A DNA stretch of 32,000 bases from Candidatus Methanoperedens sp. (GTDB taxonomy: Archaea > Halobacteriota > Methanosarcinia > Methanosarcinales > Methanoperedenaceae). The notes below the pieces were generated by a model. It did not search any database, was not told the DNA's origin, and worked only from the letters and a program-made list of their open reading frames with translations. Position numbers and translations under genes: made by a program. The stretch lies in the NCBI GenBank assembly GCA_027460525.1, contig JAPZAS010000020.1, forward strand, positions 38,598 to 70,597. The letters run 5' to 3'. Of this stretch, positions 7,013-31,825 are shown one piece after another (within the stretch, counting starts at the first letter, position 1; every line of letters begins with the position of its first letter).

Positions 7013-7972
7013 TCACTTACTTGCATTAACTCTAACACTTATATTCTGGATACTCGGGGCTCCCTTCATCAGGTTGTAATACAGACCGAAGCTGTAATCA
7101 CCTGTCGTATTGAATATATATTTTGCTTTTCCGTCCTCAGGCAGGGTTATATTGCCCATTTTTTTATCCATCTCAGTTATCGTGTAGGAGATATCCTCGT
7201 CCCTGTTGTCCCATATCACTTCGTCACCGGCATTTATCTGGAGACTGGTGGGATAGACTATGGAACTCATAACCCTTGCAGGAACAAGCACACCTGTCGG
7301 TGTAGCAACGACCACGGGTGTAGGCGTGGGCGTTGGGGTAGGTGTGGGTGTAGGCTTTGGGGTTTCTGTGATTGTGGGAATCGGGGTAGGCGCAGGACTG
7401 GGTGTCGGGGTAGGAGAAGGCGTCGGTGTGGGCGTGAATACCCTGGGCGTACCCGAATGGAGTGTTATCGGGAGCACGAGTGACTCTACCTGTTCTCCGT
7501 TTACGGATAAGGTGAGTGTGATGTCATACGTGCCCGCAAGGCTGCGTCCTTCCATCTCCTTAATTGAATGGAAAACCGCACTGATTGGTTTATTTGTCCC
7601 TGGCATGATTTCCATATCAAAATCGATGGGATCCAAAGTTCTCGTTTTCTTCTCATCGCTCATCGTTTTTAAGTACAGGTTTGCCAGGGAATCTTCCAGC
7701 GTCTTTACTTTAACTTTAATTTCAACAGACTCGCTTTTAATTGTTTCAGTTCCAGTATTAGCTACAATGAGTTCAGCGCTCACATTTTCTCCAGCTCTGA
7801 CATCAGGAGGATAAAATTTCACGTCCACGATCTTTCCGTCAAGGTTGGTATTTGCATGTTCTATCTTTTGCACCTGCGCCGGAGCATTTTCACTCGGAGG
7901 AGTCGAACCAGCGCAACCTGACAACACTACTGCAATAAGGATTAGTAATATGACCGGAACTATTTTATTCAT
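7013..7972 (-). CDS. Secreted lipoprotein-like surface protein with a Thr/Pro-rich linker
   Basis: The ATG at 7972 has GGTGAT upstream. The signal and lipobox-like sequence is MNKIVPVILLILIAVVLSGCAGS. The central linker is TPTPTPSPTPTPSPAPTPIPTITETPKPTPTPTPTPTPTP. The flanking domains are beta-rich. Confidence 0.65.
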   Translation of the reverse strand: MNKIVPVILLILIAVVLSGCAGSTPPSENAPAQVQKIEHANTNLDGKIVDVKFYPPDVRAGENVSAELIVANTGTETIKSESVEIKVKVKTLEDSLANLYLKTMSDEKKTRTLDPIDFDMEIMPGTNKPISAVFHSIKEMEGRSLAGTYDITLTLSVNGEQVESLVLPITLHSGTPRVFTPTPTPSPTPTPSPAPTPIPTITETPKPTPTPTPTPTPTPVVVATPTGVLVPARVMSSIVYPTSLQINAGDEVIWDNRDEDISYTITEMDKKMGNITLPEDGKAKYIFNTTGDYSFGLYYNLMKGAPSIQNISVRVNASK

Positions 7973-8062
7973 CAAATCACCGATACTGTGTATCGGTATC
8001 ATTGTTTAAAAACGTTTCCCATGTATATTATAATTATTATGATGTAATAATTGTAAGACAGC

Positions 8063-9579: not shown

Positions 9580-10392
9580 TTATTTTTCTTGTTGGTGTAT
9601 CTTAATTCCTATCGTTGCGACGTTTATGAATGTCTCAACTGTATTTTTCCCTTCTTCGGTAATTTCTATATACGACGAGCGCCCCTTCCCCTTTTTAACA
9701 GTCCACTCCTTATCTTCGAGTTTTTCAAAAAACTGCCTCTTTGCTTTCGCATATCCTTTTTTGGTTATTTCTTTATTCTTTCCTCGCTTTCCAGTAGCAT
9801 CTTTTATAAGACCTCGTTTTTCAAGCTCGAAAATGTACTCTTTCTGGGATATTCTTCCACCGTGCTCAGAAAGTATTGCAAGCGCGTGAATAAGTTCGTC
9901 CATCGGCGGCTCGATTGTGTATGTGGGTATCTTTAGTATTCTTTTAACGCCGCTGGTGATTCCTATAATCTTCCCGCCTTCGATGTCGGGATGCTCGATA
10001 TTATACTTCTCTGCCTGGACATAATACGGCACGGCGCCGTACATGAGCGAGGCGAGGGTGCCTGCTATTGCTGAGAGTTTGCTCCCTGATGAGAGGTTGA
10101 TGTAGACAAAGTTGCCGGCTGCTTTTTCTTTCCGCACAAGTTCGCAGAGCAGCGACATCTGCCTGCGGAAGTCCCAGATAGGACAGGAGAGGATGATAAG
10201 TTCCTTCTCTCTCACCAGCTTTTCTATCCTGCCGGTGAGTTCTTTGAGATACAATTTTCCTATATCTTTCTCTTCCTCATCCGTTATTATGTAAACCCTG
10301 TCAGCGCCAATGTCGCGCAGCGGAGTTTCGATGCGGTCTATCTCGTAGCCCATAGGTACGATGTGTACTTTTTTCTGTCCTGTTAGTTCCAT
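9580..10392 (-). CDS. Csa3-like regulator with an N-terminal CARF-like Rossmann domain and a C-terminal wHTH
   Basis: It is divergent from cas8b. The N-terminus reads KVHIVPMGYEIDRI...VYIITDEE...YINLSSGSKLSAIAG, which fits the CARF-type strand-loop and SxGxK-like motifs. The C-terminus LAILSEHGGRISQKEYIFELEKRGLI looks like a wHTH. The assignment comes from pattern and context, not from a search. Confidence 0.5.
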   Translation of the reverse strand: MELTGQKKVHIVPMGYEIDRIETPLRDIGADRVYIITDEEEKDIGKLYLKELTGRIEKLVREKELIILSCPIWDFRRQMSLLCELVRKEKAAGNFVYINLSSGSKLSAIAGTLASLMYGAVPYYVQAEKYNIEHPDIEGGKIIGITSGVKRILKIPTYTIEPPMDELIHALAILSEHGGRISQKEYIFELEKRGLIKDATGKRGKNKEITKKGYAKAKRQFFEKLEDKEWTVKKGKGRSSYIEITEEGKNTVETFINVATIGIKIHQQEK

Positions 10393-10406
10393 ATTCTGTC
10401 AGGTTA

Positions 10407-10438
10407 GTAACATTGGTAACGTTACAAATAAATGTAAC
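10407..10438. promoter_or_regulatory. GTAAC/GTTAC palindrome cluster (candidate operator) in the 5' region of the Csa3-like gene
   Basis: GTAAC occurs at 10407-10411. A perfect 10-bp palindrome GTAACGTTAC lies at 10416-10425. An inverted repeat GTTAC-N8-GTAAC spans 10421-10438. The cluster sits between a TATA-like CTATATTT (minus strand, about 10448-10455) and the ATG at 10392. Confidence 0.4.
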
Positions 10439-10521
10439 GGCGGAAAATTGAAATATAGGGAGCGCAAAATTAGAGTGTTTATTCCTGCGGCGCGGAATAC
10501 TTTCGCACCGCTTTGGTTATG

Positions 10522-10529
10522 TATATAAA
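10522..10529 (+). promoter_or_regulatory. TATA-box-like element (TATATAAA), candidate promoter of the interference operon
   Basis: This is the only strong TATA-like octamer in the divergent intergenic region. An archaeal transcription start roughly 25 bp downstream would fall just 5' of the iteron triplet at 10562-10591. Confidence 0.3.
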
Positions 10530-10561
10530 GAGATAAGTGTTCTAATCAAAACAGAAAAACG

Positions 10562-10591
10562 AACCGCAGATAAACGCAGATGAACGCAGAT
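10562..10591 (-). repeat. Iteron triplet, three tandem 10-mers (ATCTGCGKTY read on the minus strand)
   Basis: The plus strand reads AACCGCAGAT AAACGCAGAT GAACGCAGAT. This is the reverse complement of the triplets at 17198-17227 and 17559-17588. Confidence 0.85.
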
Positions 10592-10712
10592 TAACTGCAT
10601 TGAGGGAGCATGGTGATAATAACTTGAATACAGGTATCGAAACCAATGGCGCAAAGCCCGCCGATGGGGCGCGGGAGGAGCATGAGGAGGAGGGGGCGGG
10701 AGAAGTGATATA

Positions 10713-12758
10713 ATGTTGAGAGATATTAAACAACTTACTGAATTGTATTTACAGAATAAAGAAGTGCTCCCCGCTGACCAAACATGGGAAGTTTTTCATG
10801 ACGAATTGATTACAAATGCATCGTTAGAAAATATTAAAGTGCTTGCAGATGCAATCCCAAATAAATGCAAATATGCTTTATTTGTCGATATTGACATCAA
10901 AGCGAAAACCTATGAAATTAAAGATTACGTTGAAATTGGTGCAATTGAAGATTGGACAGCTCATTTATTTTGGCAAGGTTCGGGCGGGGCAAAGAGCGAT
11001 AAGGTTAGAAGCACACCACACAAAATCTATTCTAAAAAAGGAGATTTCTCAGCATCAGATTTTATAGATCCGCTTGAAACTATATTGGAAGATTATTGCT
11101 TTATTAAAGAGGATACAAAGAAAAAAGGGAAACTGAAGACAGTAGGACCATTATTTTGGGATGAAAAAAATATAGATTCAAGAGATTGGCTGCAAGGTGT
11201 AGTTGAAGTTTTAAAAGTTAATAAAGAGAAAATAGACCAAGATGTAAAAGAAAAATTCCCAGCGAAGGATTCCGTATTTGTAGGATTGACTATTGATAAT
11301 AAACCAATTGGAGAATATGAATTATTCCGCCGTTATTTATTATTTGTAAGATTGCGTTCAGGAATCCAAAAAGGAACGGACTTATTTAAAAATAGGATTA
11401 CTTCAGAAGTTATTAAGGAACAAAAATTGATAGGAGTTTGTCCCTCATGTCAATGTGAAAAACCACTTTTAAATCAATGGGCTGTGCCGGCAGAACTATC
11501 TTTTTATCAAACAACAGATAAATGTCATTTATCGTTTAAATACGAACCCGATGCCTCTTTTCGTTTATGCAGAGGTTGTTCAGATATATTATATATTTTT
11601 AAACAGCAACTTTTGGCTTCATTAACCAGAAAATTGGGTGGTGATGAGTGTTTAGTATTACCGTCTATTAAATTGATGCCAAAGGACGATACGGAAAAAT
11701 TAAGATTGTATGAAAACCTAAAAAATTTATGGGATTCTCCAAAACAAAAAATTGCCTCTACAGAAGAAAGGCTGGTTTATCGTCTTGGGAAATTGCCTTC
11801 ATATGCTACAGTAACTTTCGCCTTTGGGGATGCCATTATAACAAAAGGTGACTCAACAAATGTAAGAAGGCTCGATAAAATTAATGTTATCTTTCCAGAT
11901 GTTTTACCAAGTAGACTTTCTAAAATCGCTGATGCGATACAAAATTCAAATAAACGATTAAATGAAATGTGGGATTTAACTGGTAGGGTATGGCAGTGTT
12001 CTTGGAAGATTCAAGATGATTTTTATATATTGAAACAAATCTTTTATCCTTCATGGGAGGAAAAAAAGAAGGATAGAAGTAATACTCGACCAGAGGTAGA
12101 GAGATATTTAAGGGCAATTTTTTATGGGCAGGAGATTTTTTGTGGAGAGATTGCAGAAGATTGTTTTAGTAATTTGGTCTCCGCTATAAAAACAACTCGC
12201 AAAGCAAAAGAAGATAGCAATGACAAGTATGCTCGTGACAATTATATTGGTAATCTCTTGTCTTTATTTGTTTTTTTTGAACAACTAAAAGAAAACAATA
12301 ATCGATACAAAAAGGAGGTGAAAACCATGTCAGACAAAACACAGTTTGAATTCACTGCTATGCCAAATTTAGGCAAGTTTGTTGAAATGCATCCATTATT
12401 CAAAGACAGCCAATATCTGGCTCCATTCTTTGTTGGATGTCTATTTTCTTATGCTGAAAATTTGCAGAAAGAAAACAGCCGACTTGCTGCATATAATTGG
12501 CTTGGAACGATGAGTTTGAAATATAATGATATATTGCAGGATATATATCCAAAAGCCCTGAATTATATCACAAATAAGGAAAAGATTGTTTCAAGCCCGA
12601 GGCTGCAGGAGCTTATGAAAGCTGTTGCCCATTTTGATAAAGGAAAATGTGATAACGACAGATTGGCTTTGGTAGCTTTTTGTCACGGTTGGGCGGTAGG
12701 TAGAGATTTCATTTATATGAAAAAGGATGATAAAAAAGCGAACGCTGTAACTACATAA
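10713..12758 (+). CDS. cas8b: Type I-B large subunit Cas8b (Csh1-like)
   Basis: The 681-aa ORF sits directly upstream of cas7-cas5-cas3. It has a zinc-ribbon-like CPSCQC...CRGCSD. The size and position match Cas8b. Sequence-level family membership was not verified. Confidence 0.7.
   Translation: MLRDIKQLTELYLQNKEVLPADQTWEVFHDELITNASLENIKVLADAIPNKCKYALFVDIDIKAKTYEIKDYVEIGAIEDWTAHLFWQGSGGAKSDKVRSTPHKIYSKKGDFSASDFIDPLETILEDYCFIKEDTKKKGKLKTVGPLFWDEKNIDSRDWLQGVVEVLKVNKEKIDQDVKEKFPAKDSVFVGLTIDNKPIGEYELFRRYLLFVRLRSGIQKGTDLFKNRITSEVIKEQKLIGVCPSCQCEKPLLNQWAVPAELSFYQTTDKCHLSFKYEPDASFRLCRGCSDILYIFKQQLLASLTRKLGGDECLVLPSIKLMPKDDTEKLRLYENLKNLWDSPKQKIASTEERLVYRLGKLPSYATVTFAFGDAIITKGDSTNVRRLDKINVIFPDVLPSRLSKIADAIQNSNKRLNEMWDLTGRVWQCSWKIQDDFYILKQIFYPSWEEKKKDRSNTRPEVERYLRAIFYGQEIFCGEIAEDCFSNLVSAIKTTRKAKEDSNDKYARDNYIGNLLSLFVFFEQLKENNNRYKKEVKTMSDKTQFEFTAMPNLGKFVEMHPLFKDSQYLAPFFVGCLFSYAENLQKENSRLAAYNWLGTMSLKYNDILQDIYPKALNYITNKEKIVSSPRLQELMKAVAHFDKGKCDNDRLALVAFCHGWAVGRDFIYMKKDDKKANAVTT
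12327..12758 (+). CDS. cas11: Putative Cas11 small subunit made from an internal in-frame start within cas8b
   Basis: AAAAGGAGGTGAAAACC precedes the in-frame ATG at 12327; (12327-10713) is divisible by 3. The 143-aa product is MSDKTQFEFTAMPNLGKFVEMHPLF.... No separate cas11 gene exists in the locus. Internal Cas11 translation is established for types I-B, I-C and I-D. Confidence 0.45.
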   Translation: MSDKTQFEFTAMPNLGKFVEMHPLFKDSQYLAPFFVGCLFSYAENLQKENSRLAAYNWLGTMSLKYNDILQDIYPKALNYITNKEKIVSSPRLQELMKAVAHFDKGKCDNDRLALVAFCHGWAVGRDFIYMKKDDKKANAVTT

Positions 12759-12770
12759 GGAGGAAAGAAT

Positions 12771-13955
12771 ATGAATAATCACTTAAAAAATAGGCACGAA
12801 ACCCTTTTTTTATGGGATGCACGAAAGAGTAACCCAAATGGAGACCCCAATGGGAATGAACCACGTATTGATAGGCATACCAAGCGATGCGATATCACAG
12901 ACGTATGCATTAAGAGGTCGATAAGAAATTTTATCACAACTAAATATGGATTAAATAGTATTCTTGTTACTAAACTTGGAGATGATGCATCAGAGACCGT
13001 AACATTAACTGATAGAATTTCAAACTATCTATTCGGTACAGCCGAGAAAATCAAAAAATTAAAAGATATAGTTGAAAAACATGCTGAAGGCAAATTGGAC
13101 AAAACATTAGAACCTTATAAATCCTTTAATGAAAAACCTTCACCTGCAACTTTAAAAACAATAATAAGTTCCAAAAAAGAAGATAAAGATAAATTGAAAA
13201 AGATATTAATTAATAAAGATATCGATATTGAGACACTTCAAAGTGGAATAATTAAAGATTTAAGAGCTTATCTCTGCGGCGCATTTTCAGATCTACGAAT
13301 GTTTGGAAGCGTGCTTGCATTGGAAAAAGAGTTAAATCCTTTAGGAGGACCTATCACAGGGCCAATTCAGATAGAAATTGGTACTTCTCTTCATCGTGTA
13401 GTTCAATCCAACAAGCAAATTACGAGTGTAATGGGAAGTAAGGAAGAGAAAGAAGCTGGGATTATTGGTGACACTCATTGCATCGAGTATGGTTTGTTTG
13501 CAACCAGTGCCATAGCAAATGAAAATGCGGCGAAATTTACGGGTTTAACTGCTGAAGATCACGATTTATTCCTAAAAACTCTCTGGCGTGGAACTCGTGA
13601 ACGTCATACTCGAAGTAAAAATCAAGTTCCAAGACTGTTGATAGACATAGAATATAACAAGCCATTTCATTTCGGTGATCTAGTGAATAGTGTTGGATTG
13701 AAGCCGAAATTTGATGAGAAAGTTGGAAAAACCATAGAAGAAGAAAGTTATAGAAGTATAGATGACTTTACTATTGATTTAACTGGATTCTTCAATAAAA
13801 TTGACTCAAAAAAAGAATCTGTGGATTCTATTAAATTTGCTTCCTATGGGCTAATATCCTTAAAGGAATTTAAAGAAGGACTACCAAAAGAATTAGTTAA
13901 CAATATATTTGAACTTACAGATATCGATTTTGATAAAGCGCCGGAAACAAAATGA
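12771..13955 (+). CDS. cas7: Cas7 backbone subunit (Csh2/Csd2-type, I-B)
   Basis: The N-terminus LFLWDARKSNPNGDPNGNEPRIDRHTKRCDITDVCIKRSIRNFI is the hallmark of the Csh2/Csd2 Cas7 family. DLRMFGSV is also present. At 394 aa it is longer than usual, with a Lys-rich insertion around residues 85-160. Confidence 0.85.
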   Translation: MNNHLKNRHETLFLWDARKSNPNGDPNGNEPRIDRHTKRCDITDVCIKRSIRNFITTKYGLNSILVTKLGDDASETVTLTDRISNYLFGTAEKIKKLKDIVEKHAEGKLDKTLEPYKSFNEKPSPATLKTIISSKKEDKDKLKKILINKDIDIETLQSGIIKDLRAYLCGAFSDLRMFGSVLALEKELNPLGGPITGPIQIEIGTSLHRVVQSNKQITSVMGSKEEKEAGIIGDTHCIEYGLFATSAIANENAAKFTGLTAEDHDLFLKTLWRGTRERHTRSKNQVPRLLIDIEYNKPFHFGDLVNSVGLKPKFDEKVGKTIEEESYRSIDDFTIDLTGFFNKIDSKKESVDSIKFASYGLISLKEFKEGLPKELVNNIFELTDIDFDKAPETK

Positions 13956-14653
13956 AAATCATATCTTTTTGTATGCAGGGGAGGTTCGCCCATTTCTGTA
14001 TACCCTTTACGAATGTTTATCGACTCACTCAACCTTGCCCCACTAAAACGGCAATATTGGGCTTTATTGGTGCTGTATTGGGTATAGATAAGGACAATCT
14101 GAGCCTCTATCAAAAGTTCAAATGTGGTGTCGAAATACTCGGTGAATACAGAACAATAGCTATTCCTTACCTCGCCAGACAAGGTTTTCCTGGAAGCTCT
14201 TCAAATAAAGATTCTTCAAGAACTTCTGTTGAAGTGGTAGTTAAACCAAGATATAGAATATATCTTCTCGGAGAGGAGGATTCCATTAGAGATATTCAAA
14301 AGGTATTGTCGTATCAGGAACCTGTATATACACCATATCTTGGATTAGCACAATTTATTGCAAGTACCGATTTTGAAGTAAGCGATTTAACTGATGCAGA
14401 TTTTGTCGAAGGCATAGATGTAAATGCTAATGGTGCTTTCATTCGAGGAGTACATGGTGAGTTGGATTTTTCCAAATTAACCTCAGATTCAATAAGATTA
14501 ACCGAATTTCAAGGAATTAAAGGAATTTTGCCACCACGCAACTTCGAGCATGGTGTTTTCACAATTAACCTTGATGCTGGTACCATCCCTTTAAAAAATG
14601 TACGACATGTAGTGAAAATTCCAGAGTCGGATAAATATGTACCAGTTTTCTAA
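13952..14653 (+). CDS. cas5: Cas5 (I-B)
   Basis: The N-terminus GRFAHFCIPFTNVYRLTQPCPTKTAILGFIGAVLGI is the typical Cas5 motif. There is an ATGA overlap with cas7. The protein is 233 aa. Confidence 0.8.
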   Translation: MKIISFCMQGRFAHFCIPFTNVYRLTQPCPTKTAILGFIGAVLGIDKDNLSLYQKFKCGVEILGEYRTIAIPYLARQGFPGSSSNKDSSRTSVEVVVKPRYRIYLLGEEDSIRDIQKVLSYQEPVYTPYLGLAQFIASTDFEVSDLTDADFVEGIDVNANGAFIRGVHGELDFSKLTSDSIRLTEFQGIKGILPPRNFEHGVFTINLDAGTIPLKNVRHVVKIPESDKYVPVF

Positions 14654-17006
14654 TATTAAATCACATCCTGATTTACCACTTGAGAGTCATTTATCTCAGG
14701 TCGCAGATATAGCAATCAACCTATTAGAAAATAAAAAAGTGGATTTTTCAAAACTTGGAATTTCCAAAACACATATTAAAGAACTTATTAAAAGAACCGG
14801 ATTCTTTCATGACATAGGAAAAGCTACGCCATATTTTCAGAATCGATTATCAACGGGAAAAAAGGCTCCAAATGGTGAACATCAGCATACAGGGTTATCG
14901 ACCATCCTCGCTTATAAGCCTATCATGGATTATTGCAAAGAAAATAAACTTGAGGGTTATATTGCATTAGCGCCACTTATTGCGATTAAGTGCCATCATT
15001 CCGAATTTTCTAAATCATTGCCAAATGATGGTGCTATGGAATTACGCATAAAATCGTTTCACAAAGAGATTTTAGAACTATCCGACTTAAAAAACATTGG
15101 ATTGTCTATTAATGATTACCCGCCTAATCCATTAGATGTTGATTGCAAAATTGAAGACTTATTATTTGATGTTGATAGATGTTCGTCGGAACAAAAAATT
15201 AAATTTCGATTATTGACTCTTTTTATTTATTCATTGCTTCTTGAAGCCGATAAAGCTTATTTGGCAGTTAAAGACAAGGAATTATATCAGCGAAAAGCAA
15301 TAAGCATAGATAAATCTACAGTGGATAATTTTAAAATAAATAAATTTAAAAATAAAACTGGAATAATAAATAAAGACCGTGAAGAAGCCTCTTTTGAAGT
15401 AAATAACCAAATAAACAATATTAATTTAGACAATCGCATATATTCTCTTACTTTGCCAACCGGAATGGGTAAAACTTTATTGGCTGCTTCCTGGGCGTTA
15501 AAATTAAGAGAAAAAATAAATGAAAAAGACGGTTTCCTTCCTCAGGTAATTGTTGCGCTACCTTTTCTTTCTATAATAGATCAATCGGCTAAGACTTATG
15601 AAGAATTCCTAGGCAATCCAAATGAGGATATTTTTCTAAAAACGCACTCTCTTTCGCCTTTTGAGTTTAATGGCTATGAACAAAACGCAGCAGAGTTTTT
15701 TATTAATATTTGGAAATCCCAAATAATCATGACCACCTTCGATCAACTTTTATATACTTTTTTAAGTTTCAAACCAAAACACCTTATGCGCTTTCATAAT
15801 TTGATGAACAGCATAATTATTATGGATGAAATACAGGCTTTGCCTCCCCACTTATGGAATCCATTTAACACTTTTATAAAATACATAACCGAAATTGGAA
15901 ATAGTTATCTTCTTGTTATGTCAGCTACACAACCTCGTTTTTTAGATAATGCCATCGAAATAGTTACTGACAAAAAGGTAGGAGAATTAGTTAAAGGACC
16001 TGAAAGATATTTTGAAAAATTATCTCGCTATAAACTAATATTGAAACATAAGGAGCCCAAAGCCATAGATGATTTTATTGAAGAAATGAAAACTGAGCTT
16101 AAAAATTTAAAAGAAAATAAAATTATGTTTGTCCTCAATACGAGAGATTGTGCAAAAAGAATTTACGAAAAATTGAAAGAATATTCTGATGGCAGAGAAA
16201 CATACTTTCTTTCATCTTATGTAATACCTAAAGAAAGATTGGAAAGAATCGAGAAAATAAAAAATTCAGACCGCGCTTTAGTTATAACCACCCAATGTAT
16301 TGAAGCTGGTGTGGATATTGACATGGATTACGTTATTAGAGATTTAGGACCGTTAGATTCAATAATACAAGTTGCTGGACGATGCAACCGTGAAGGTGAA
16401 AAAAATACCAAGTCCGTAGATATCATTCGATTATATGATCCAAATGCAAAGAGTCCTTTCAGTCCAAATGGTGAATTTAATGTAATGGTTTATGACGAAT
16501 TATCTATTGGAGCAACTCTTAAAATCTTAGATGAAGTCTTAAAGAAAGAAGGGAAAGAAATTATAGAAAGTAAGGTTTTTGACTTAGCAAAGCAATATTT
16601 TATTGAATTGCGCCGAAAAGATTTGGGAGTCTCTAGGACCGAATGTTTAATTGACTTATCCCACGAATACAAAAAAAACGGTAAACCAAATAAGTTCAAT
16701 ATTCGTTCAGAGTTAAGGGGAAATCTAAAACAATATAACTTGATTGTTGAAAAATTCGTACCTGATTTGAAGAATGAAATTGAGCAAATATTTAACGAAA
16801 AAATAGATCGATGGGAGCGAAGAAGAAAACTTAAAAACATTTCAAGCAAAATAGCAATGAATTCTATTTCGGTGAATGCATATAATTTTAATCCAGATGA
16901 AATTGCAAACCGAGGAAAAGGCGATTTTTATTTTCTTGAGTCGAAATATTATGATGAAGATGTTGGTTTTAATTATAAAACACCCCCAAGCGTATACATA
17001 ATATGA
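14637..17006 (+). CDS. cas3: Cas3 HD nuclease-helicase fusion
   Basis: HD domain motifs are FHDIGKATPYFQ, HTGLS and KCHHSEF. Helicase motifs are LPTGMGKT (I), MDEIQ (II) and QVAGRCNREG (VI). It overlaps cas5 by 17 nt. Confidence 0.9.
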   Translation: MYQFSNIKSHPDLPLESHLSQVADIAINLLENKKVDFSKLGISKTHIKELIKRTGFFHDIGKATPYFQNRLSTGKKAPNGEHQHTGLSTILAYKPIMDYCKENKLEGYIALAPLIAIKCHHSEFSKSLPNDGAMELRIKSFHKEILELSDLKNIGLSINDYPPNPLDVDCKIEDLLFDVDRCSSEQKIKFRLLTLFIYSLLLEADKAYLAVKDKELYQRKAISIDKSTVDNFKINKFKNKTGIINKDREEASFEVNNQINNINLDNRIYSLTLPTGMGKTLLAASWALKLREKINEKDGFLPQVIVALPFLSIIDQSAKTYEEFLGNPNEDIFLKTHSLSPFEFNGYEQNAAEFFINIWKSQIIMTTFDQLLYTFLSFKPKHLMRFHNLMNSIIIMDEIQALPPHLWNPFNTFIKYITEIGNSYLLVMSATQPRFLDNAIEIVTDKKVGELVKGPERYFEKLSRYKLILKHKEPKAIDDFIEEMKTELKNLKENKIMFVLNTRDCAKRIYEKLKEYSDGRETYFLSSYVIPKERLERIEKIKNSDRALVITTQCIEAGVDIDMDYVIRDLGPLDSIIQVAGRCNREGEKNTKSVDIIRLYDPNAKSPFSPNGEFNVMVYDELSIGATLKILDEVLKKEGKEIIESKVFDLAKQYFIELRRKDLGVSRTECLIDLSHEYKKNGKPNKFNIRSELRGNLKQYNLIVEKFVPDLKNEIEQIFNEKIDRWERRRKLKNISSKIAMNSISVNAYNFNPDEIANRGKGDFYFLESKYYDEDVGFNYKTPPSVYII

Positions 17007-17036
17007 CAAATCCTTAACAAATACAAAAGTGTAATT

Positions 17037-17189
17037 ATGATCCTGAAAACTTTCCCCCTCGCCCCCGCCCTCCCCATCACACAGGCGCGGCGCAGCACGA
17101 CAGACGGCGCGCAGGGATTTCATGACGGCGCCGGACTTATAAATGATGTTTATGATAAATACGATGAAATAAAAATATGGAGAACATGA
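17037..17189 (+). pseudogene. Degenerate cas6 5' copy 1 (in-frame 50-codon mini-cas6 ORF)
   Basis: My translation is MILKTFPLAPALPITQARRSTTDGAQGFHDGAGLINDVYDKYDEIKIWRT*. It aligns with Cas6 residues MLLKTFTL... and ...MIDGAPMVIGINDGAEVLKQVYDKYDEIKL across an internal deletion that preserves the frame. Confidence 0.6.
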
Positions 17190-17197
17190 AACAACCA

Positions 17198-17227
17198 ATC
17201 TGCGTTCATCTGCGTTCATCTGCGGTT
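17198..17227 (+). repeat. Iteron triplet (ATCTGCGTTC ATCTGCGTTC ATCTGCGGTT)
   Basis: These tandem 10-mers were read directly. The same triplet recurs 361 bp downstream and, inverted, at 10562-10591. Confidence 0.9.
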
Positions 17228-17298
17228 CGTGATTTCGATACGCATAGCCTGCCTCGGATGCCTATCGGCGCGCCGGACAGTTTAAAATATTTAGCTCT

Positions 17299-17329
17299 GA
17301 GTTCGTACGAGTTCGTATTGAGTTCGTTG
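17299..17329 (+). repeat. Second short tandem repeat (GAGTTCGTAC GAGTTCGTATT GAGTTCGTTG)
   Basis: Three consecutive 10-11-bp units were read directly. They are present only in the first unit of the cas3-cas6 spacer region. Confidence 0.7.
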
Positions 17330-17410
17330 TTTATATTCCATCTCGCTCTGCGCTCTTTGCGTTCATCAGCGGTTAATGAATCCGATAGTGAAATTAACCT
17401 TCCACACGTA

Positions 17411-17547
17411 ATGCTCCCCGCCCCCCCATCCTCCCCACTCATGCGCGGCGCATCACGACAGACGGCGCGCCGGGACTTTGTGGCGGCGCCAGATTTATAA
17501 AGATGATTTATGATAAATACGACAAAATAAAAATATGGAGACCATGA
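17411..17547 (+). pseudogene. Degenerate cas6 5' copy 2 (frameshifted)
   Basis: ATGCTCCCCGCCCCCCCATCCTCCCC...GACGGCGCGCCGGGACTTTGTGGCGGCGCCAGATTTATAAAGATGATTTATGATAAATACGACAAAATAAAA is homologous to copy 1 and to cas6. However, the YDKYD segment is out of frame with the ATG. Confidence 0.55.
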
Positions 17548-17558
17548 AAACTGAACAA

Positions 17559-17588
17559 ATCTGCGTTCATCTGCGTTCATCTGCGGTT
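17559..17588 (+). repeat. Iteron triplet (ATCTGCGTTC ATCTGCGTTC ATCTGCGGTT)
   Basis: Its sequence is identical to the triplet at 17198-17227. Confidence 0.9.
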
Positions 17589-17692
17589 TGTTATTTCTAT
17601 AAACAGAAGTTGCATCGGCTTCCTATCGGCGCCGAAATTATAAAAAATTGCTTTGATAAATATCATGAAATAAAATCAGATGAGGATTGCAA

Positions 17693-18385
17693 ATGCTCCT
17701 GAAAACCTTCACCCTCACTCTCGCCTCCACCCGCCCCATCCACGCCCCAGCCTCGCTTCTGCGCGGCTTCTTCGCCACAAAGTTCAACGAATACTCCCTC
17801 TTCCACCAGCACAATGCAGACAGGCTCATCTACCGCTACCCTCTCGTACAGTACAAGATGATAGACGGCGCGCCCATGGTCATCGGCATCAATGACGGCG
17901 CCGAAGTTTTAAAACAGGTTTATGATAAATACGATGAGATAAAACTCGGCGAGGAGGTTTATGAGATCGTCGAGAAAGGCATCGCTGTGAGAAATCAGGA
18001 GTTCGGGATAAGCGATAAGTTCCATTCCTATGAGTTCATCACACCATGGCTTGCGCTCAATCAGGAGAATTACATGAAGTACTACGGTCTTAAGAGTCAT
18101 GAGGATAGACATGAATTCCTGAGAAAAACGCTCATTGGGAACCTTCTATCCATGTCGAAAACGCTGGATTATCAGGTGCCTGAAGAGATAAAATGCGATG
18201 TCCAGGTAAATATCAGGAAAAGCAAGTTGAAAGATGTAAACGTGATGACCTTCATCGGAAGATTCTGTACCAACTTCATCATACCTGATTATCTTGGCAT
18301 CGGGAAATCGGTTTCAAGAGGATTTGGCGCCGTTATCAGAAATAATGATTTAAAAATGAACTTTAATAATATATACCAAAGTTAA
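17693..18385 (+). CDS. cas6: Cas6 crRNA endoribonuclease (Cas6b-like)
   Basis: The C-terminal glycine-rich loop LGIGKSVSRGFGAVI is the Cas6 signature. The size and context are RAMP-like. The ATG at 17693 is preferred over 17687 for two reasons: GAGGA lies 7 nt upstream, and the degenerate upstream copies align from this ATG. Confidence 0.8.
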   Translation: MLLKTFTLTLASTRPIHAPASLLRGFFATKFNEYSLFHQHNADRLIYRYPLVQYKMIDGAPMVIGINDGAEVLKQVYDKYDEIKLGEEVYEIVEKGIAVRNQEFGISDKFHSYEFITPWLALNQENYMKYYGLKSHEDRHEFLRKTLIGNLLSMSKTLDYQVPEEIKCDVQVNIRKSKLKDVNVMTFIGRFCTNFIIPDYLGIGKSVSRGFGAVIRNNDLKMNFNNIYQS

Positions 18386-18458: not shown

Positions 18459-18920
18459 GTGAAATCGGTGACCATGCAGACGAAAAATAAGTTGCCCGTT
18501 GAAAAACTCATCAGCAAGCTGAATAAAGAATTTGAATTTATAAACGACGAAGTTGAAGGTATTTTACTTTATGGTTCATGTGCATTGAATACTGCGGATG
18601 AACGCTCTGATATAGACATATGCATCATTAAACCCCGGACACACGGAATTTTGAACAGGATTTTTCAAAAGGTTGGCGATAAGTACGATGTGAAAATCTT
18701 CGAAGAGCTGCCCCTTTATGTAAAAATAGACATAATCGAAAACTACAAAGTGGTATACGGAGATGAGCCCTCGATTTCTTATTATTTCTACAATTTCAGA
18801 AAAAATTGGGAAGACATGGAATACAGGATAGTGAACAACAGATTCCGCACTGTATCTGAGATGAACATAACCAGGAGGAGATGGTTTGAAAGAAGAAGAC
18901 AGGTACCTGTCAAAGGTTGA
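18459..18920 (+). CDS. mntA: Minimal nucleotidyltransferase (MNT), putative antitoxin
   Basis: ILLYGSCALNTADERSDIDICII matches the GS...DxD NTase motif. The start is uncertain (GTG at 18459 or ATG at 18474). It overlaps the downstream HEPN gene. Confidence 0.7.
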   Translation: MKSVTMQTKNKLPVEKLISKLNKEFEFINDEVEGILLYGSCALNTADERSDIDICIIKPRTHGILNRIFQKVGDKYDVKIFEELPLYVKIDIIENYKVVYGDEPSISYYFYNFRKNWEDMEYRIVNNRFRTVSEMNITRRRWFERRRQVPVKG

Positions 18921-19269
18921 AAGATTTACCGAGGAAGAAGAATTTATTTCTACACACACGATAGACAATGACGTAACCGAGCGCGCCTTGCTGTATTCTC
19001 TTCAGGTTGTAGTAGAGATATCCATGGATATAATTGCCATGAAAGTACGGGACATGGGCTTGAAGGTCGAAGATGACGCCACGAATATTGAAAAAATCAC
19101 AGATAAAAAAATAATATCACAAAACGAAGGGGATTTTTTAAGACAGATGAACGGGGTCCGGAACTTCATAGTCCACAGGTATGATTATCTTGATATGGAT
19201 ATTGTAAATGAGGCTCTTTCAAGAATCAACGAGCTAAAAGGGATAATCGTAAAAGTGGCAGAATACTGA
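18886..19269 (+). CDS. hepT: HEPN (DUF86) domain protein, putative RNase toxin
   Basis: RNFIVHRYDYLD matches the Rx4H HEPN motif. The TTG start at 18886 is preceded by AGGAGGAG. The gene is paired and overlapping with the MNT gene. Confidence 0.7.
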   Translation: MKEEDRYLSKVERFTEEEEFISTHTIDNDVTERALLYSLQVVVEISMDIIAMKVRDMGLKVEDDATNIEKITDKKIISQNEGDFLRQMNGVRNFIVHRYDYLDMDIVNEALSRINELKGIIVKVAEY

Positions 19270-19270
19270 C

Positions 19271-20239
19271 ATGCAACTCGTAATAAACACGCGCGGCGCG
19301 TATCTCAAAAAGGAAAAGAACTGCTTCCTTGTGAAGAACGACGACAAGAGCTTTGAGGTTTCAGCCGACAAGGTGGACAGCATACTCATAACAACTTCAG
19401 CGACCATTACCACAGATGCTATCGAATTTGCAGTTGAGAACAATATTGATATTGTATTCCTGAACTACTTTGGCGATCCTTACGGCAGGGTGTGGCACTC
19501 CAAGCTTGGAAGCACGACACTTATACGGCGCCGGCAGCTTGAAGCTGAAGCCTCATCTGTGGGGTTCAACCTGGCGCGCGGCTGGATAGCGCAGAAGCTT
19601 GAGAACCAGCTTGATTTCCTCAAAGACCTGAAAAAGAACCGACCCGATGACTATGAGACTTTCGGGCAGTACATTGTGAAAATTAGCCAATCGAAGGATG
19701 ACCTCATGAACATGAAAGGCTCACTTGACGAAAAGCGCGGCTCGATAATGGGGATGGAGGGCATGGCTTCATTGACGTATTTCGAGGCGCTAGCCAGCAT
19801 TATGCCAGAGACATGGAAGTTTGCAGGAAGAAGCCGTGACCCGGCGCAGGATGCTTTCAACTGCCTCCTCAACTACGGTTACGGGGTTCTGTATTCACAG
19901 GTCGAAAAAGCATGCATCATCGCAGGACTTGACCCATATATGGGCTTCCTGCACACCGATAATTATAACAAGAAATCCTTTGTTTTCGACCTTATTGAGA
20001 TTTTCAGGATACATATCGACAGGACGGTTATAAACCTTTTTTCAAAAAAACAGGTGCATGAGGGCTTATTCGACAAAATCCCCGGCGGCTTATACATGAA
20101 TAAGGATGGTAAAGCGGTATTGATCTCAGCGGTCAATGAAACCCTTGACAAAGAAATCGAATACAATGGGCGCAATGTCAAAGTCAGGAACACGATCCAG
20201 ATGGAATGCCACAGCATAGCGAACAGTTTGATAAAATAG
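19271..20239 (+). CDS. cas1: Cas1 integrase
   Basis: The 322-aa product begins MQLVINTRGAYLKKEKNCFLV...ILITTSATITTDAIEFAVENNIDIVFLNYFGDPYGRV and contains NCLLNYGYGVLY and DPYMGFLH. These are canonical Cas1 motifs. Confidence 0.9.
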   Translation: MQLVINTRGAYLKKEKNCFLVKNDDKSFEVSADKVDSILITTSATITTDAIEFAVENNIDIVFLNYFGDPYGRVWHSKLGSTTLIRRRQLEAEASSVGFNLARGWIAQKLENQLDFLKDLKKNRPDDYETFGQYIVKISQSKDDLMNMKGSLDEKRGSIMGMEGMASLTYFEALASIMPETWKFAGRSRDPAQDAFNCLLNYGYGVLYSQVEKACIIAGLDPYMGFLHTDNYNKKSFVFDLIEIFRIHIDRTVINLFSKKQVHEGLFDKIPGGLYMNKDGKAVLISAVNETLDKEIEYNGRNVKVRNTIQMECHSIANSLIK

Positions 20240-20250
20240 GAGGAGCTTAA

Positions 20251-20544
20251 ATGACAATGGTTTGGGTGGTTTACGATATTGCAGATAACACCACGCGCAA
20301 GAACGTCGCACGCATCTGCCTTGACAAAGGGCTGTACCGGGTGCAAAAGAGCGTTTTTCTTGGTACTCTTAATGCAAACGATAGGGATTCTCTCGCCCTG
20401 GAATGCGAGGAAGAAATCGACCTCGATGTTGATTCTGTATATGTTTTTCCGATGGATGACGAATCGTTCAGGAAAGTAAAGCTCCTCGGTCAGGCTTTTG
20501 ACAAAGAGCTTGTGAGTGATGAGGTATTGACAAAATTCTTTTGA
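20251..20544 (+). CDS. cas2: Cas2
   Basis: The 97-aa product contains VVYDIADNTTRKNVARICLDKGLYRVQKSVF, the typical Cas2 N-terminal ferredoxin fold. Confidence 0.85.
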   Translation: MTMVWVVYDIADNTTRKNVARICLDKGLYRVQKSVFLGTLNANDRDSLALECEEEIDLDVDSVYVFPMDDESFRKVKLLGQAFDKELVSDEVLTKFF

Positions 20545-20556
20545 AGAAAATAGATT

Positions 20557-21147
20557 ATGACTGCCGGAGATACGATTATCACCATTTCTGATGTGCTTGA
20601 GTACCTTTTCTGCCCGCGTTTCATTTATTTTATGCACTGCCTGGATATCCCGCAGCATGAGGAATCGAGGTTCAAGGTTTTGAAGGGAAGGGAAGTCCAT
20701 GAGGAAAAACGGATAACGAATACGGAGTACCTGCGAAAGAAACTCGGAGTTGTGAAAAAAGAACTGAACGTATTCATTGCTTCAAAAAAGAACCACATTA
20801 AAGGGATTGTGGACGAGATTCTGTTCCTTGATGACGGGACTGCAGCGCCTTTTGAATATAAATTTGCTGAGTTCAAGGATACTATTTTCAAAACCCACAA
20901 ATTCCAACTAGTGCTGCATGCCATCATGATTAAAGAGAATTACAACATTGATGTAAGAAGAGGATTTATCTGTTTTACACGAAGCAATAACCACATCGAA
21001 GAGGTGGATTTTACGGAAAAGGATTTTAAAAAAGGAATTGAAATCGTTGATGAAATCCTTGAAATCATTGACAAAGGCTTTTATCCGGGTAAGTCCAAAT
21101 ATAAGAATAAGTGCATTGACTGCTGTTACAGTAACATCTGCACCTGA
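20557..21147 (+). CDS. cas4: Cas4 (RecB-like nuclease with a 4-Cys cluster)
   Basis: The N-terminal Cys lies in YLFCPRFIYF and the C-terminal cysteines in CIDCCYSNIC. D..E.K-like nuclease core residues are present (DEILFLDD...EYKF). The gene sits directly before the leader. Confidence 0.85.
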   Translation: MTAGDTIITISDVLEYLFCPRFIYFMHCLDIPQHEESRFKVLKGREVHEEKRITNTEYLRKKLGVVKKELNVFIASKKNHIKGIVDEILFLDDGTAAPFEYKFAEFKDTIFKTHKFQLVLHAIMIKENYNIDVRRGFICFTRSNNHIEEVDFTEKDFKKGIEIVDEILEIIDKGFYPGKSKYKNKCIDCCYSNICT

Positions 21148-21255: not shown

Positions 21256-22979
21256 ATTCAAGAAGCACATCCACTAAAACAAGGATTGAAACTATCCCAG
21301 TCGAATGTAGGGGATTTGCCAAGTCTTATTCAAGAAGCACATCCACTAAAACAAGGATTGAAACATAGGTATGGCATCTTACAAAAAATGCGGTAAGGAT
21401 ATATTCAAGAAGCACATCCACTAAAACAAGGATTGAAACCTGCAATGCAGGAAATGAACGGGAAAACCTACAGGATTCAAGAAGCACATCCACTAAAACA
21501 AGGATTGAAACTATAGTACCTCCTTTTTCTATAGAAAAAGGTTCTAATTCAAGAAGCACATCCACTAAAACAAGGATTGAAACATGGAAGTGCTTTATCA
21601 TTTATCAATAAATCAGTAGGATTCAAGAAGCACATCCACTAAAACAAGGATTGAAACAAGGGCATGTGAAGCTCACGGTAAGAGATGCAGAAATTCAAGA
21701 AGCACATCCACTAAAACAAGGATTGAAACATATCGAAACAGAGCAGAAGCGAATCCAGGACATTGATTCAAGAAGCACATCCACTAAAACAAGGATTGAA
21801 ACCGGAACAAACCAACATTTCAACTCCAGCCTATTCACCATCATTCAAGAAGCACATCCACTAAAACAAGGATTGAAACATATGAAAACTAAAATAATCG
21901 GAATTGTAATTTCAAATTCAAGAAGCACATCCACTAAAACAAGGATTGAAACCAGGCGGGATGGCTGCAATATCCGCTGCAGTTGGAAGTATTCAAGAAG
22001 CACATCCACTAAAACAAGGATTGAAACTCACCATGGTAGTTCAAACCCTCAAGATCAGCGATATTCAAGAAGCACATCCACTAAAACAAGGATTGAAACA
22101 ACCTCCTGTTCCGATTGTGGTTTGTCGTTGTGTTATTCAAGAAGCACATCCACTAAAACAAGGATTGAAACTTTGACAATAATATCTTGCTGGCTGTTCC
22201 TGTTTCGTATTCAAGAAGCACATCCACTAAAACAAGGATTGAAACTGATTACTGATTACCGTTATGGAAACGGATCGGTTTATTCAAGAAGCACATCCAC
22301 TAAAACAAGGATTGAAACGGAGCTCGATAATGAGGGCGGGATATATCGTAAGACTATTCAAGAAGCACATCCACTAAAACAAGGATTGAAACAGCACGAA
22401 CAATGCATCATCATTGTCAGCAAACATCGAATTCAAGAAGCACATCCACTAAAACAAGGATTGAAACTATGATATCTGTGGACTATGCCCCATGTTGCAG
22501 CATATTCAAGAAGCACATCCACTAAAACAAGGATTGAAACCATGCCTCGATAACAACCGGTCGCTGTTCCAGTTCATTCAAGAAGCACATCCACTAAAAC
22601 AAGGATTGAAACCATATTCTACGGCAGTGTGCCCTTCCCTTAACAATTCATTCAAGAAGCACATCCACTAAAACAAGGATTGAAACAATTCCCGCACCGG
22701 TGCAGGCATCGCTATATACTGTAAAATTCAAGAAGCACATCCACTAAAACAAGGATTGAAACATACCATCCTCGGACAAAGTCTGGCCGCCAAGGTTATT
22801 CAAGAAGCACATCCACTAAAACAAGGATTGAAACTTCATTATCAGATTTTACAGGGCATAAAAAATATAAATTCAAGAGGCACATCCACTAAAACAAGGA
22901 TTGAAACTAGCGACTACAACTTATCCAAGCACTCCCCAAATAATTCAAGAGGCACATCCACTAAAACAAGGATTGAAAC
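21256..22979 (+). CRISPR. CRISPR array with 24 repeats of 37 nt and 23 spacers of 35-40 nt
   Basis: The repeat is ATTCAAGAAGCACATCCACTAAAACAAGGATTGAAAC. Repeat starts, counted by hand, are 21256, 21328, 21403, 21475, 21547, 21621, 21693, 21766, 21843, 21916, 21991, 22063, 22135, 22209, 22282, 22356, 22431, 22504, 22576, 22650, 22726, 22798, 22871 and 22943. The last two repeats carry the same A-to-G change (AAGAGGCAC). The 3' ATTGAAAC is the standard I-B 8-nt handle. Confidence 0.97.
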
Positions 22980-25793: not shown

Positions 25794-26126
25794 TTATTTC
25801 TTTCTTTTCGGTTTCCTAGCAAACATTTTGAGAATTTGCGAACTGGCGAGCCAGACTAAAGCAAGACCCGCTATTACCATGACCTGTCTAATTGTTAAAA
25901 GGTCGTAAAATTCATGAGGAATTCCAAGAATATCGCTGAAAAAATGGGTTGCATCACAAAAAATCCCTGATAAAAGAATCAAAGACCCGAAAGTTAAGAG
26001 GTACGGGGAGAGAAAAGATAACAATAATAGAGTTGGAAGGGATATTGTTTTTTTATTTTTATATATGTATATTATAGTGAAACAAATTCCAATCAAGGAA
26101 CTTGTCGTTATTAAATTAATTTGCAT
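25794..26126 (-). CDS. Small membrane protein (hypothetical)
   Basis: The 110-aa track ORF has three clearly hydrophobic segments and a basic C-terminal tail (KPKRKK). No family was recognised. Confidence 0.4.
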   Translation of the reverse strand: MQINLITTSSLIGICFTIIYIYKNKKTISLPTLLLLSFLSPYLLTFGSLILLSGIFCDATHFFSDILGIPHEFYDLLTIRQVMVIAGLALVWLASSQILKMFARKPKRKK

Positions 26127-26255
26127 TATTCATGAATGTTCTATGAACACATCCATAACTCTTATGACCATATGATTAGCATAACTAATATAATCATTTT
26201 TTTAATTATTAAACCAAGTCTGTCCCCTACTTCTACAACCTTGATTGAGCTGAAC

Positions 26256-26453
26256 TCATGATTTGGTAACTATCTCCCTCCGTTCTTCTAAAATATAAAG
26301 CATTGCTATAATTGTACCAAAAATACAACCTATAATAATAGCAATAAAACCATCCAAAGCAAAACCCAATAGTCCACCACCAATCATACCAGTTAAGATT
26401 ATACCAACGTTATCATTTTTTATATTAGACAATATAGGGTTCTTCATTAGCAT
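26256..26453 (-). CDS. Small membrane protein (hypothetical)
   Basis: The 65-aa track ORF has a Gly-rich pair of TM segments (GIILTGMIGGGLLGFALDGFIAIIIGCIFGTIIAML). Confidence 0.35.
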   Translation of the reverse strand: MLMKNPILSNIKNDNVGIILTGMIGGGLLGFALDGFIAIIIGCIFGTIIAMLYILEERREIVTKS

Positions 26454-26556
26454 ATTGTATATACAATACTCTTATTTAAAGATTATCATAATGCTAATCA
26501 TTATGATATTTTTCCTAAATTCCCGTTGAATTAATGCCGACGGTCAATTATTCTAT

Positions 26557-26960: not shown

Positions 26961-27183
26961 TCTCATGGTCAAGAAAGATGCCTAAACAAACTCCTAAAAC
27001 TTAAAACCTTCAGCCTTATTTTTCTTTGGAGAATAAACTTAATAGTATGAAAATAATAAAAGCTACAAAAATAGGTAAATTATTTTCCCAAAGATAATTT
27101 AAGATACCATAAAAATTATAAATTAAGGCTATAATAATAACCACAAAAACTATGATACCTACTATCTCAGAAGGTTTACGCAC
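26941..27183 (-). CDS. Small membrane protein (hypothetical, 80 aa)
   Basis: This ORF is not in the supplied track. I checked by hand that no stop falls in this frame between the GTG at 27183 and the TGA at 26941-26943. The N-terminus is VRKPSEIVGIIVFVVIIIALIYNFYGILNYLWENNLPIFVAFYYF, which gives two TM segments. The 3' end overlaps the tail of the GC-rich island. Confidence is low. Confidence 0.25.
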
Positions 27184-27231
27184 ACAGAAATAATTGTGTT
27201 TATGATATTTAAATATTTGGAATGAACAGCT

Positions 27232-31707: not shown

Positions 31708-31825
31708 GGGAAGATTCCATCCAATAATTTCAAAGACATTATTACAGTTCTGGCCGAATGTTTAAATGATAAGACTAATCAAAATCCTAAGAAATTTGAA
31801 AATATACTACTTACAATTCAAATCG

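Follow-up and report, generated by a model that had tools for sequence, protein, structure and literature searches.

Interference and adaptation gene cassettes have been described in the Sulfolobales. The modular evolution of CRISPR-Cas systems, in which effector and adaptation modules recombine, is well established (reviewed in PMC6452270), and chimeric CRISPR loci have been noted on extrachromosomal elements of Methanoperedens (PMC13444090). We analysed here a stretch of 32,000 nucleotides (nt) from a Candidatus Methanoperedens genome (hereafter called the window), which carries a chromosomal type I-B CRISPR-Cas locus composed of two evolutionary units. The first unit is a genus-conserved module, cas6b-(mntA-hepT)-cas1-cas2-cas4, followed by the CRISPR array, and the second one is a replaceable interference cassette, cas8b-cas7-cas5-cas3. 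We consider it probable that this cassette was installed by recombination in its flanks, most likely through allelic exchange between Methanoperedens lineages. As in other cases of modular evolution, the adaptation and processing module and the array are kept, the effector module is replaced, the similarities of the two modules are incongruent, and the effector family has spread horizontally across domains. Unlike in these cases, the replacement takes place in one fixed chromosomal slot with breakpoints defined at the nucleotide level, with at least eight occupants within one genus, among them a cassette of another subtype and a toxin-antitoxin pair unrelated to CRISPR; cas6 stays on the adaptation side, and the junction contains relics of the cas6 5' end together with iterons, i.e., tandem 10-nt units. 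It is these features that are new here, module shuffling being already known, and the most open thread is the unexplained iteron family. No published description of such a slot architecture was found in a limited literature search.

The slot begins on the left with an inner flank (10592-10704, plus strand), which presumably provides the effector operon with its promoter and 5' untranslated region (UTR) and stops ~8 nt short of the cas8b ATG. In 13 Methanoperedens-type loci (designated below by L followed by a number), the 10592-10703 segment is 72-91% identical, its orientation is constant, and it ends right before the first cassette gene. On the right, the cas6-cas1-cas2-cas4 module of these loci has a nucleotide identity of 77-92%, and the Cas6, Cas1, Cas2 and Cas4 proteins of such relatives are 78-97% identical to those of the window. 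Between these two borders, the effector proteins of the relatives are only 25-39% identical to those of the window, undetectable, or of other subtypes. When occupants are grouped so that Cas3 identity between groups is below 45%, at least eight unrelated ones are found among the 13 loci. They comprise I-B variants (one common to the window and L196, one to L064, L055 and L006, one in L008, one in L013 and L005, and one in L022), a cassette that has a cas6 of its own besides a DevR/Csa2-type Cas7 (L065), another cassette with a DevR/Csa2-type Cas7 (L003, L015 and L020), a type I-D cassette with cas3', Csc2 and its own Cas6 (L019), and an AbiEi/AbiEii toxin-antitoxin pair alone, without effector genes (L017). 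The I-D cassette (L019 1358-7670), in which cas3' is accompanied by genes for a large HD-containing protein, Csc2 and a Cas6b-like protein of its own, adjoins a conserved regulator homologue on one side and an I-B-type cas6-cas1 module on the other. In L017, which belongs to Methanoperedenaceae HGW-1, the slot upstream of cas6-cas1-cas2-cas4 (1282-2837) contains only the type IV AbiEi/AbiEii pair, and the adaptation module and its 32-repeat array are left without adjacent effector genes. A first-pass annotation, made from the sequence of the window alone, had proposed that the effector module was swapped in; the comparison with related genomes supports this proposal, the cassette being replaced between the same flanks.

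The limits of the exchanged unit are given by mosaic patterns of nucleotide identity. The window and L196 are 96.7% identical over exactly 10705-17064, although their flank variants differ, and L194, L195 and L198 are 76-80% identical to the window from 10705/10712 to 16984/17045. From 17063 onward, the window matches L006 at 87-94%, the cassette of L006 being unrelated. On the left side, the conserved flank reaches within about 8-25 nt of the start codon of each cassette; 55 nt of this flank are missing from the window and kept in L196, L064, L006 and L013. One breakpoint is thus located ~8 nt ahead of the cas8b ATG, and the other ~27 nt downstream of the start of R1, the first of two cas6 relics (see below). 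The exchanged segment (10705-17064, plus strand) runs through the four effector genes and a 30-nt spacer as far as ~27 nt into R1, and the position of the breakpoints indicates that the exchanged unit corresponds to the four open reading frames (ORFs) and a 30-nt trailer, with crossovers in the 5' UTR and at the start of the cas6 copy. Both breakpoints lie inside the flanking iterons, by about 110 nt on the left and 130 nt on the right, at the inner edges of composite elements that the first-pass annotation had recognised on both sides of the cassette and regarded as the site of recombination. The replacement itself stands, and the crossovers map to the inner edges of these elements rather than to the iterons. 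Taken together, the conserved slot, its multiple occupants and the mosaic breakpoints point to module replacement through conserved flanks.

As for the origin of the present cassette, its native context is seen in L195, a compact, low-G+C locus where the cassette's own cas6 follows cas3 by 32 nt. The closest protein relatives of the cassette outside the related contigs include bacteria (Jettenia and Thermodesulfovibrio, ~65%), and the effectors of Methanosarcina spelaei are 64-70% identical to those of the window. The Cas8b family, 59-67% identical in Jettenia, Thermodesulfovibrio, Scalinduaceae and Methanosarcina, is spread over bacteria and archaea and thus horizontally mobile across domains. 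Two further observations concern cassettes of this type. In L194 (2337-9336), identity to the window is itself mosaic within the cassette (Cas8b 90%, Cas7 84%, Cas5 63%, Cas3 65%), and this drop indicates a recombination breakpoint between cas7 and cas5; in the same locus, the cassette has a cas6 of its own, which cas3 overlaps, and an MNT/HEPN pair and a DUF2283 gene take the place of the regulator on the left. Logan contigs carrying this cassette type (L196, L197 and L198) stop within ~60-90 nt of the cas8b start, and L196 and L198 also stop ~140-200 nt beyond the cas3 stop, as expected if assemblies break at flanks that are common to several cassette variants in one sample.

The window contains all the hallmarks of type I-B systems, namely Cas8b, Cas7, Cas5, an HD-helicase Cas3, Cas6b, Cas1-Cas2-Cas4 and an adjacent array. 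The genes of the cassette, all on the plus strand, are cas8b of the TM1802 family, to which its homologues are also assigned (10713-12758; PF09484, E=3.5e-25), cas7 of the Csh2 type (12771-13955; TIGR02590, 194 bits, over the cutoff), cas5 (13952-14653; 87.6 bits with TIGR02592, under its 97-bit cutoff, the TIGR02593 domain model being passed) and cas3 (14637-17006), which encodes an HD nuclease and a helicase and exceeds the cutoff of both the cas3_core and cas3_HD models. Downstream, and on the same strand, profile searches identified cas6b (17693-18385), the first gene of the genus-conserved module, an mntA-hepT toxin-antitoxin pair (18459-19269) between cas6 and cas1, and the cas1-cas2-cas4 adaptation genes (19271-21147), followed by the CRISPR array (21256-22979, plus strand), whose 24 copies of a 37-nt repeat end with ATTGAAAC and match RF01320. 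The cas genes had been correctly placed in the first-pass annotation, which had missed the mntA-hepT pair. This set of proteins, with Cas8b (TM1802/Csh1), Cas7 (Csh2), Cas5, a fused HD-helicase Cas3, Cas6b, Cas1, Cas2 and Cas4, and the 37-nt repeat matching RF01320 resemble those of Methanosarcinales type I-B systems, in which the Methanosarcina mazei-type repeat also ends with ATTGAAAC. In the textbook type I-B order, cas6 comes first and cas4 lies ahead of cas1. Unlike this order, the clade studied here uniformly displays cas8b-cas7-cas5-cas3-cas6-cas1-cas2-cas4, and in the window a toxin-antitoxin pair separates cas6 from cas1. The gene order of the window had been taken at first for an atypical, rearranged one. 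This view has to be abandoned: cas7-cas5-cas3-cas6-cas1-cas2-cas4 is found in more than 40 Cas6-anchored loci, and cas3-cas6-cas1-cas2-cas4 is the norm of this Cas6b/Cas1 clade, in Methanoperedens, Methanosarcina (spelaei), Methanolobus, Methanoregula, Methanocella, Methanolinea and Methanocorpusculum.

The conserved module behaves as a unit of the genus. All close relatives of its Cas6 come from Candidatus Methanoperedens assemblies, Cas6b is 78-90% identical at the amino-acid level across Methanoperedens loci, and the 37-nt CRISPR repeat is nearly invariant regardless of the cassette type. The mntA-hepT pair is present between cas6 and cas1 in some Methanoperedens relatives and not in others; in addition, another MNT/HEPN pair, unrelated to it, lies between cas3 and cas6 in many relatives, with an iteron of what we call class B ahead.

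The cassette also differs from its surroundings in base composition. The four effector genes have a G+C content (GC) of 0.315-0.375 and a G+C content at third codon positions (GC3) of 0.243-0.274, compared to means of 0.433 and 0.479, respectively, for the 20 remaining genes of the window (Mann-Whitney p=0.001), the GC3 of the neighbouring genes being 0.39-0.60. The lowest-GC 6.3-kb stretch of the 32 kb begins at 10701. The AT-rich character first suspected from counts on a few lines of sequence therefore holds over full genes and in a 6.3-kb window scan, as a sharp step centred on the cassette. With a GC3 of about 0.25, the present cassette is foreign in composition.

The right-hand junction is made of duplicated material. 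The segments 17014-17271 and 17373-17632 are 76.6% identical over 261 nt in direct orientation (E=6e-55), and the two direct composite copies seen to the right of cas3 in the first-pass annotation are thus real. Each of them contains a tandem triplet of ATCTGCGTTC (plus strand; 17198-17227 for R1 and 17559-17588 for R2), preceded by what had been considered a C-tract and a variable part belonging to an element of its own. This last point does not hold: 17037-17069 matches the first 33 nt of cas6 (17693-17725) at 82%, and 17122-17174 matches cas6 17892-17944 at 87%. From these matches, the so-called C-tract and variable part are best described as decayed cas6 5' fragments joined to iterons. R1 (17037-17191, plus strand) has kept a start codon and the C-tract, followed by an internal deletion and by codons ~57-84, and R2 (17411-17549, plus strand) is a second decayed fragment of the same kind. 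Each relic is followed by an ~80-nt insert bearing the iterons and then by another cas6-derived piece (codons ~62-84). After R1, this piece belongs to the post-iteron segment (17228-17410, plus strand), which also contains a degenerate iteron (17347-17387); in L008, L065 and L003, this segment is found inverted, at the left end of the slot. After R2, the last cas6-derived piece lies directly upstream of the real cas6: the 17613-17686 region (plus strand) is 72% identical to the cas6-internal 17881-17955 (codons ~62-84), carries a sequence resembling a B recognition element and a TATA box (BRE/TATA-like), AAATTATAAAAAA, at 17635-17647, and is 89-94% conserved in L006, L008, L055 and L065. A duplicated fragment of the cas6 coding sequence thus appears to serve now as the putative promoter and 5' UTR of cas6. 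Longer cas6 relics, of up to 86 codons and 57-83% amino-acid identity, are present in L005, L011, L020 and L055, and the L196 contig ends in a better-preserved relic that still reads through the YPLVQYKMIDGAP region. The composite repeats are not dedicated recombination sites. The cas6 relics and their iteron inserts could rather be scars left by past events that disrupted and duplicated sequence at this junction.

A second triple repeat with a 10-nt period, of the GAGTTCGTA type, is located between R1 and R2 (17295-17331: GAGTTCGTAC GAGTTCGTAT TGAGTTCGTT). It recurs at 85-92% identity in L128 (2931-2967 and 3825-3861) and L020 (3661-3698), which suggests that it may represent another dispersed iteron family.

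On the left of the cassette, the minus strand mirrors the layout of the right side, with a C-rich tract, a middle part, iterons, a TATA-like TTTATATA (10522-10529) and a gene, here that of a putative regulator (9580-10392, minus strand), which is divergent from the cassette. The iteron triplet (10562-10591, minus strand) is the reverse complement of ATCTGCGTTCATCTGCGTTTATCTGCGGTT, and the region between it and the regulator gene (10393-10561, minus strand) is the putative regulator promoter and 5' UTR. The arms bracketing the cassette, of 34-38 nt, are 92-97% complementary, and none of 100 shuffles gave any match; the inverted left copy of the triplets, noticed at first reading, is thereby confirmed. 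The left iteron site is conserved at the same position in L013 and L065, and the regulator promoter and 5' UTR region in L065, L013 and L006. The rest of the claimed mirror image fares less well. When the G-tract (10666-10700) is aligned as DNA with the C-tracts of the right side, the observed score is reached by 10-82 of 500 shuffles, and the z value is ~1.4 against the intact cas6 and up to 4.7 between relatives, so that its reverse complement is at best a marginal homologue of the C-tracts, and we do not claim that the left tract is a proven cas6 relic. In contrast, as an RNA duplex with R1, R2 or the true cas6 5' end, the G-tract region reaches -70 to -74 kcal/mol, compared to -52 to -59 kcal/mol for dinucleotide shuffles (0-2 of 200 being as good) and -31 to -36 kcal/mol for control coding regions. 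Both the iterons and the complementarity of the flanks therefore speak for an inverted architecture, whose middle parts show no clear homology. The conserved G-rich 5' UTR, which shows strong complementarity to the C-rich 5' end of cas6, 6-7 kb further downstream, contains four G-runs (GGGG, GGG, GGGGG and GGG) and might also form a G-quadruplex.

According to the scenario that we favour, the replacement of the cassette through its conserved flanks, the present cassette would have entered by crossovers located, on the left, ~8 nt ahead of the cas8b start codon and, on the right, in the initial ~27 nt of the cas6 copy. The likeliest route would be homologous (allelic) exchange between Methanoperedens lineages. 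Cas6b, Cas1, Cas2, Cas4 and the repeat would stay together during such exchanges, and every cassette type could use CRISPR RNAs (crRNAs) with the common ATTGAAAC handle; function might be preserved across swaps because Cas6b, the repeat and this handle are constant. The iterons may add short homology or fragility, the crossover points lying elsewhere.

Several points weigh against this scenario. The left-flank homology, ~100-230 nt at 72-91% identity, is short for efficient homologous exchange between species, and the mechanism of recombination is deduced from sequence comparison. Several related contigs have other taxon labels (for example "Levybacteria") and were treated as Methanoperedens-type on Cas6/Cas1 identity alone. 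All eight cassette types are AT-rich (cassette GC of 0.30-0.36), and effector genes are below cas6 and cas1 in GC in other genera too; low GC, being general across cassettes and genera, cannot date the acquisition of the cassette by the window. Furthermore, the inverted symmetry of the flanks recurs, both as the complementarity between the G-tract and the cas6 5' end and as a ~130-nt inverted repeat that surrounds the different cassette of L008. Finally, the iteron triplet has three flank classes in Methanoperedens loci, and flanks change partner exactly at the iterons. Plain allelic exchange leaves such recurrent symmetry and partner switching unexplained, and they could mean that the repeats take an active part.

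What the iterons are has to be considered. One possibility, to which we give a rather low probability, is that they are operators of the adjacent CARF-like/winged-helix regulator, which would co-regulate its own promoter and that of cas6; the inverted orientation of the iterons would then follow from divergent transcription, a proposal compatible with cassette exchange. The regulator gene product has an HFX_2341-like N-terminal domain (HFX_2341_N, E=1e-27) and a DUF6293 winged helix (E=4e-15) in Pfam, its similarity to CARF families is faint (Cas_APE2256 and Cas_NE0113 scores below threshold), and a PDB sequence search gave no meaningful match. Each triplet points to a gene, that of the regulator on the left and cas6 on the right, with a TATA-like box ~40-50 nt further on, the 10-bp periodicity would suit binding on one face of the DNA helix, and the iteron sites are conserved in several species. 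However, the R1 triplet has no gene behind it, and the regulator gene is missing from most related loci that retain iterons, homologues being found beside the slot in L019 (79%) and L040 (66%, partial). The same 30-mer is moreover present in at least 120 contigs (GC of 0.36-0.72), beside housekeeping genes of bacteria that do not have this context. This wide distribution outside cas contexts also led us to reject a Csa3-type operator confined to regulated promoters.

An exact search for the 30-nt triplet ATCTGCGTTYATCTGCGTTYATCTGCGGTT found it verbatim in at least 120 JGI metagenome contigs and in 7 IMG/VR contigs, i.e., at least 127 contigs in total (loci labelled L067-L193). Among the matches listed, these contigs come from bacteria and archaea, and 58 minus/plus hairpin pairs surround variable spacers of 14-382 nt. 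Compensatory changes in both arms are seen in some pairs (L117 and L028). From their N-terminal sequences, without profile scan, we take the genes beside iteron pairs to be argH, eno, gmk, kdsB, nuoF, dnaN and gap, and, in low-GC contigs, presumably often MNT/HEPN pairs; one loop encodes a small protein that we read as GxxExxY-like, unconfirmed against profile libraries. The occurrence of the 30-mer beside ordinary genes shows that it is not specific to cas loci, and the iterons of the window can be regarded as solo arms from a family of hairpin-forming repeats dispersed over bacteria and archaea. Such a family resembles repetitive extragenic palindromic (REP) sequences, bacterial interspersed mosaic elements (BIMEs) and miniature inverted-repeat transposable elements (MITEs) in its short conserved arms, intergenic inverted pairs, many copies, common solo arms and compensatory arm changes. 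It differs from them in that its arms consist of tandem 10-nt units, (GAACGCAGAT)n, and in that no associated transposase was identified in the window and no Rfam match was obtained. REPs are normally species-specific, and one 30-mer common to bacterial and archaeal contigs of GC 0.36-0.72 argues against classic REPs. An Rfam search on 17 iteron-hairpin contigs gave one spurious microRNA-like match and no family, and no description of the iteron sequence was found in the literature search; this hairpin shared across domains deserves a study of its own. A reading of the iterons as a small-ORF signal, suggested by the "GGAG...ATG" that precedes them in flank classes A and B, was rejected, because the reading frame differs between these classes and because class C and bacterial copies do not have this motif.

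A more speculative idea, which we hold with little confidence, is that the iteron palindrome, (GAACGCAGAT)n ... (ATCTGCGTTC)n, is an undescribed recombinogenic or docking element of bacteria and archaea, the inverted cas6-derived sequence making it, in Methanoperedens, a slot for defence cassettes, and that pairing may occur between the conserved G-rich 5' UTR and the 5' end of cas6. If so, whole cassettes (I-B and I-D effectors, AbiE, MNT/HEPN pairs) would be captured and exchanged, which would amount to an integron-like function without a recognisable integrase, and the pairing would link any newly arrived cassette to the processing and adaptation genes already in place. The stricter version, in which the inverted iterons and cas6-derived sequence are the arms of a palindrome with the cassette in its loop, acting either as a fragile hotspot that captures DNA or as a bracketed unit that moves like a composite element, seems to us improbable. 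It would account for the prevalence of minus/plus pairs among the metagenomic arms, for the same arrangement around about 6.6-8.3 kb in the window, L013 and L065, for the inverted repeat of L008 and for the mosaics that switch at iterons. It does not agree with the location of the cassette-variant breakpoints, well inside the iterons. Neither target-site duplications in the flanks nor a transposase or integrase in the window were seen, and the outer flanks of iteron pairs prolong the palindrome only weakly (mean of 4.7 of 12 nt, the ~3 of 12 used as chance level being an expectation under equal base frequencies and not a computed control). Known elements of this kind were also considered and rejected. 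A composite transposon or a MITE-bounded element does not fit a conserved flank that runs ~110-130 nt inside the iterons, nor the lack of target-site duplications and of a transposase in the window. The attC sites of integrons have R''(RYYYAAC) and R'(GTTRRRY) consensus boxes. The flanks of the iteron pairs do not fit these boxes in a manual check, and the window contains no integrase. The spacing between the inverted arms is exactly 6606 nt both in the window (10591-17198) and in L013 (1304-7911), two loci with unrelated cassettes (Cas3 identity of 38%), which is probably a coincidence.

The cassette had also been imagined as an invertible segment of 6.3 kb, flipped as a switch by recombination between inverted repeats, in the manner of shufflons or Hin/Gin-type systems. 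Like these switches, it is a gene block placed between inverted repeats (30-38 nt, 92-97% identity, and longer ones in L008). Unlike them, it has a single orientation relative to cas6, together with its left flank, in all 13 related loci and in the two assemblies of this locus, no invertase or recombinase gene is found nearby, and inversion would serve no promoter logic, a flip cutting the operon off from its conserved 5' flank; we thus regard this proposal as very improbable. As for the absence of any exchange, with effectors that diverged where they stand and owe their AT-richness to function, or with junctions that are an assembly chimera, it is hardly tenable, even though effector GC is below adaptation-gene GC in every genus examined: effector identities of 25-39% adjoin 78-97% in neighbouring genes, the cassettes are of more than one subtype (I-B variants and I-D), nearer effector relatives exist in M. 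spelaei and bacteria, and both junctions are spanned identically by two assemblies, a 747-kb contig of a metagenome-assembled genome (GCA_040223915.1) and an independent 11-kb ENA metagenome contig, which encode an identical Cas6 protein and have the same gene order through both cassette junctions.

The interest of this replaceable cassette lies first in its resolution, as module shuffling is usually inferred from trees and is here resolved to nucleotide-level breakpoints in one chromosomal slot. It concerns a genus that matters for methane cycling and that has to cope with extrachromosomal elements such as Borgs, plasmids and viruses. The slot would constitute a natural experiment, in which many Cascade/Cas3 sets, and even another subtype, may serve one set of Cas6b, Cas1-2-4 and repeat. 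It bears on the compatibility of crRNA handles and protospacer-adjacent motifs, on diversification driven by anti-CRISPRs, and on the design of interchangeable effector modules.

Beyond the CRISPR-Cas locus, the flanking genes encode radical-SAM proteins, an EamA transporter, an M24 peptidase, NosD-like proteins, ThiI and a glutamate dehydrogenase. Profile searches of the scanned ORFs of the window detected no recombinase, integrase or transposase domain, and an Rfam scan of the whole window returned the CRISPR repeats and nothing else. In-frame tandem repeats with periods of 24 nt and 60-66 nt are located at 7317-7429, inside an ORF without Pfam match (7013-8002), and at 30557-31203, inside a NosD/beta-helix ORF (30066-31280). 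Other short low-GC islands (0.28) occur outside the cas locus, at 26001-26500, 27001-27500 and 31501-32000.

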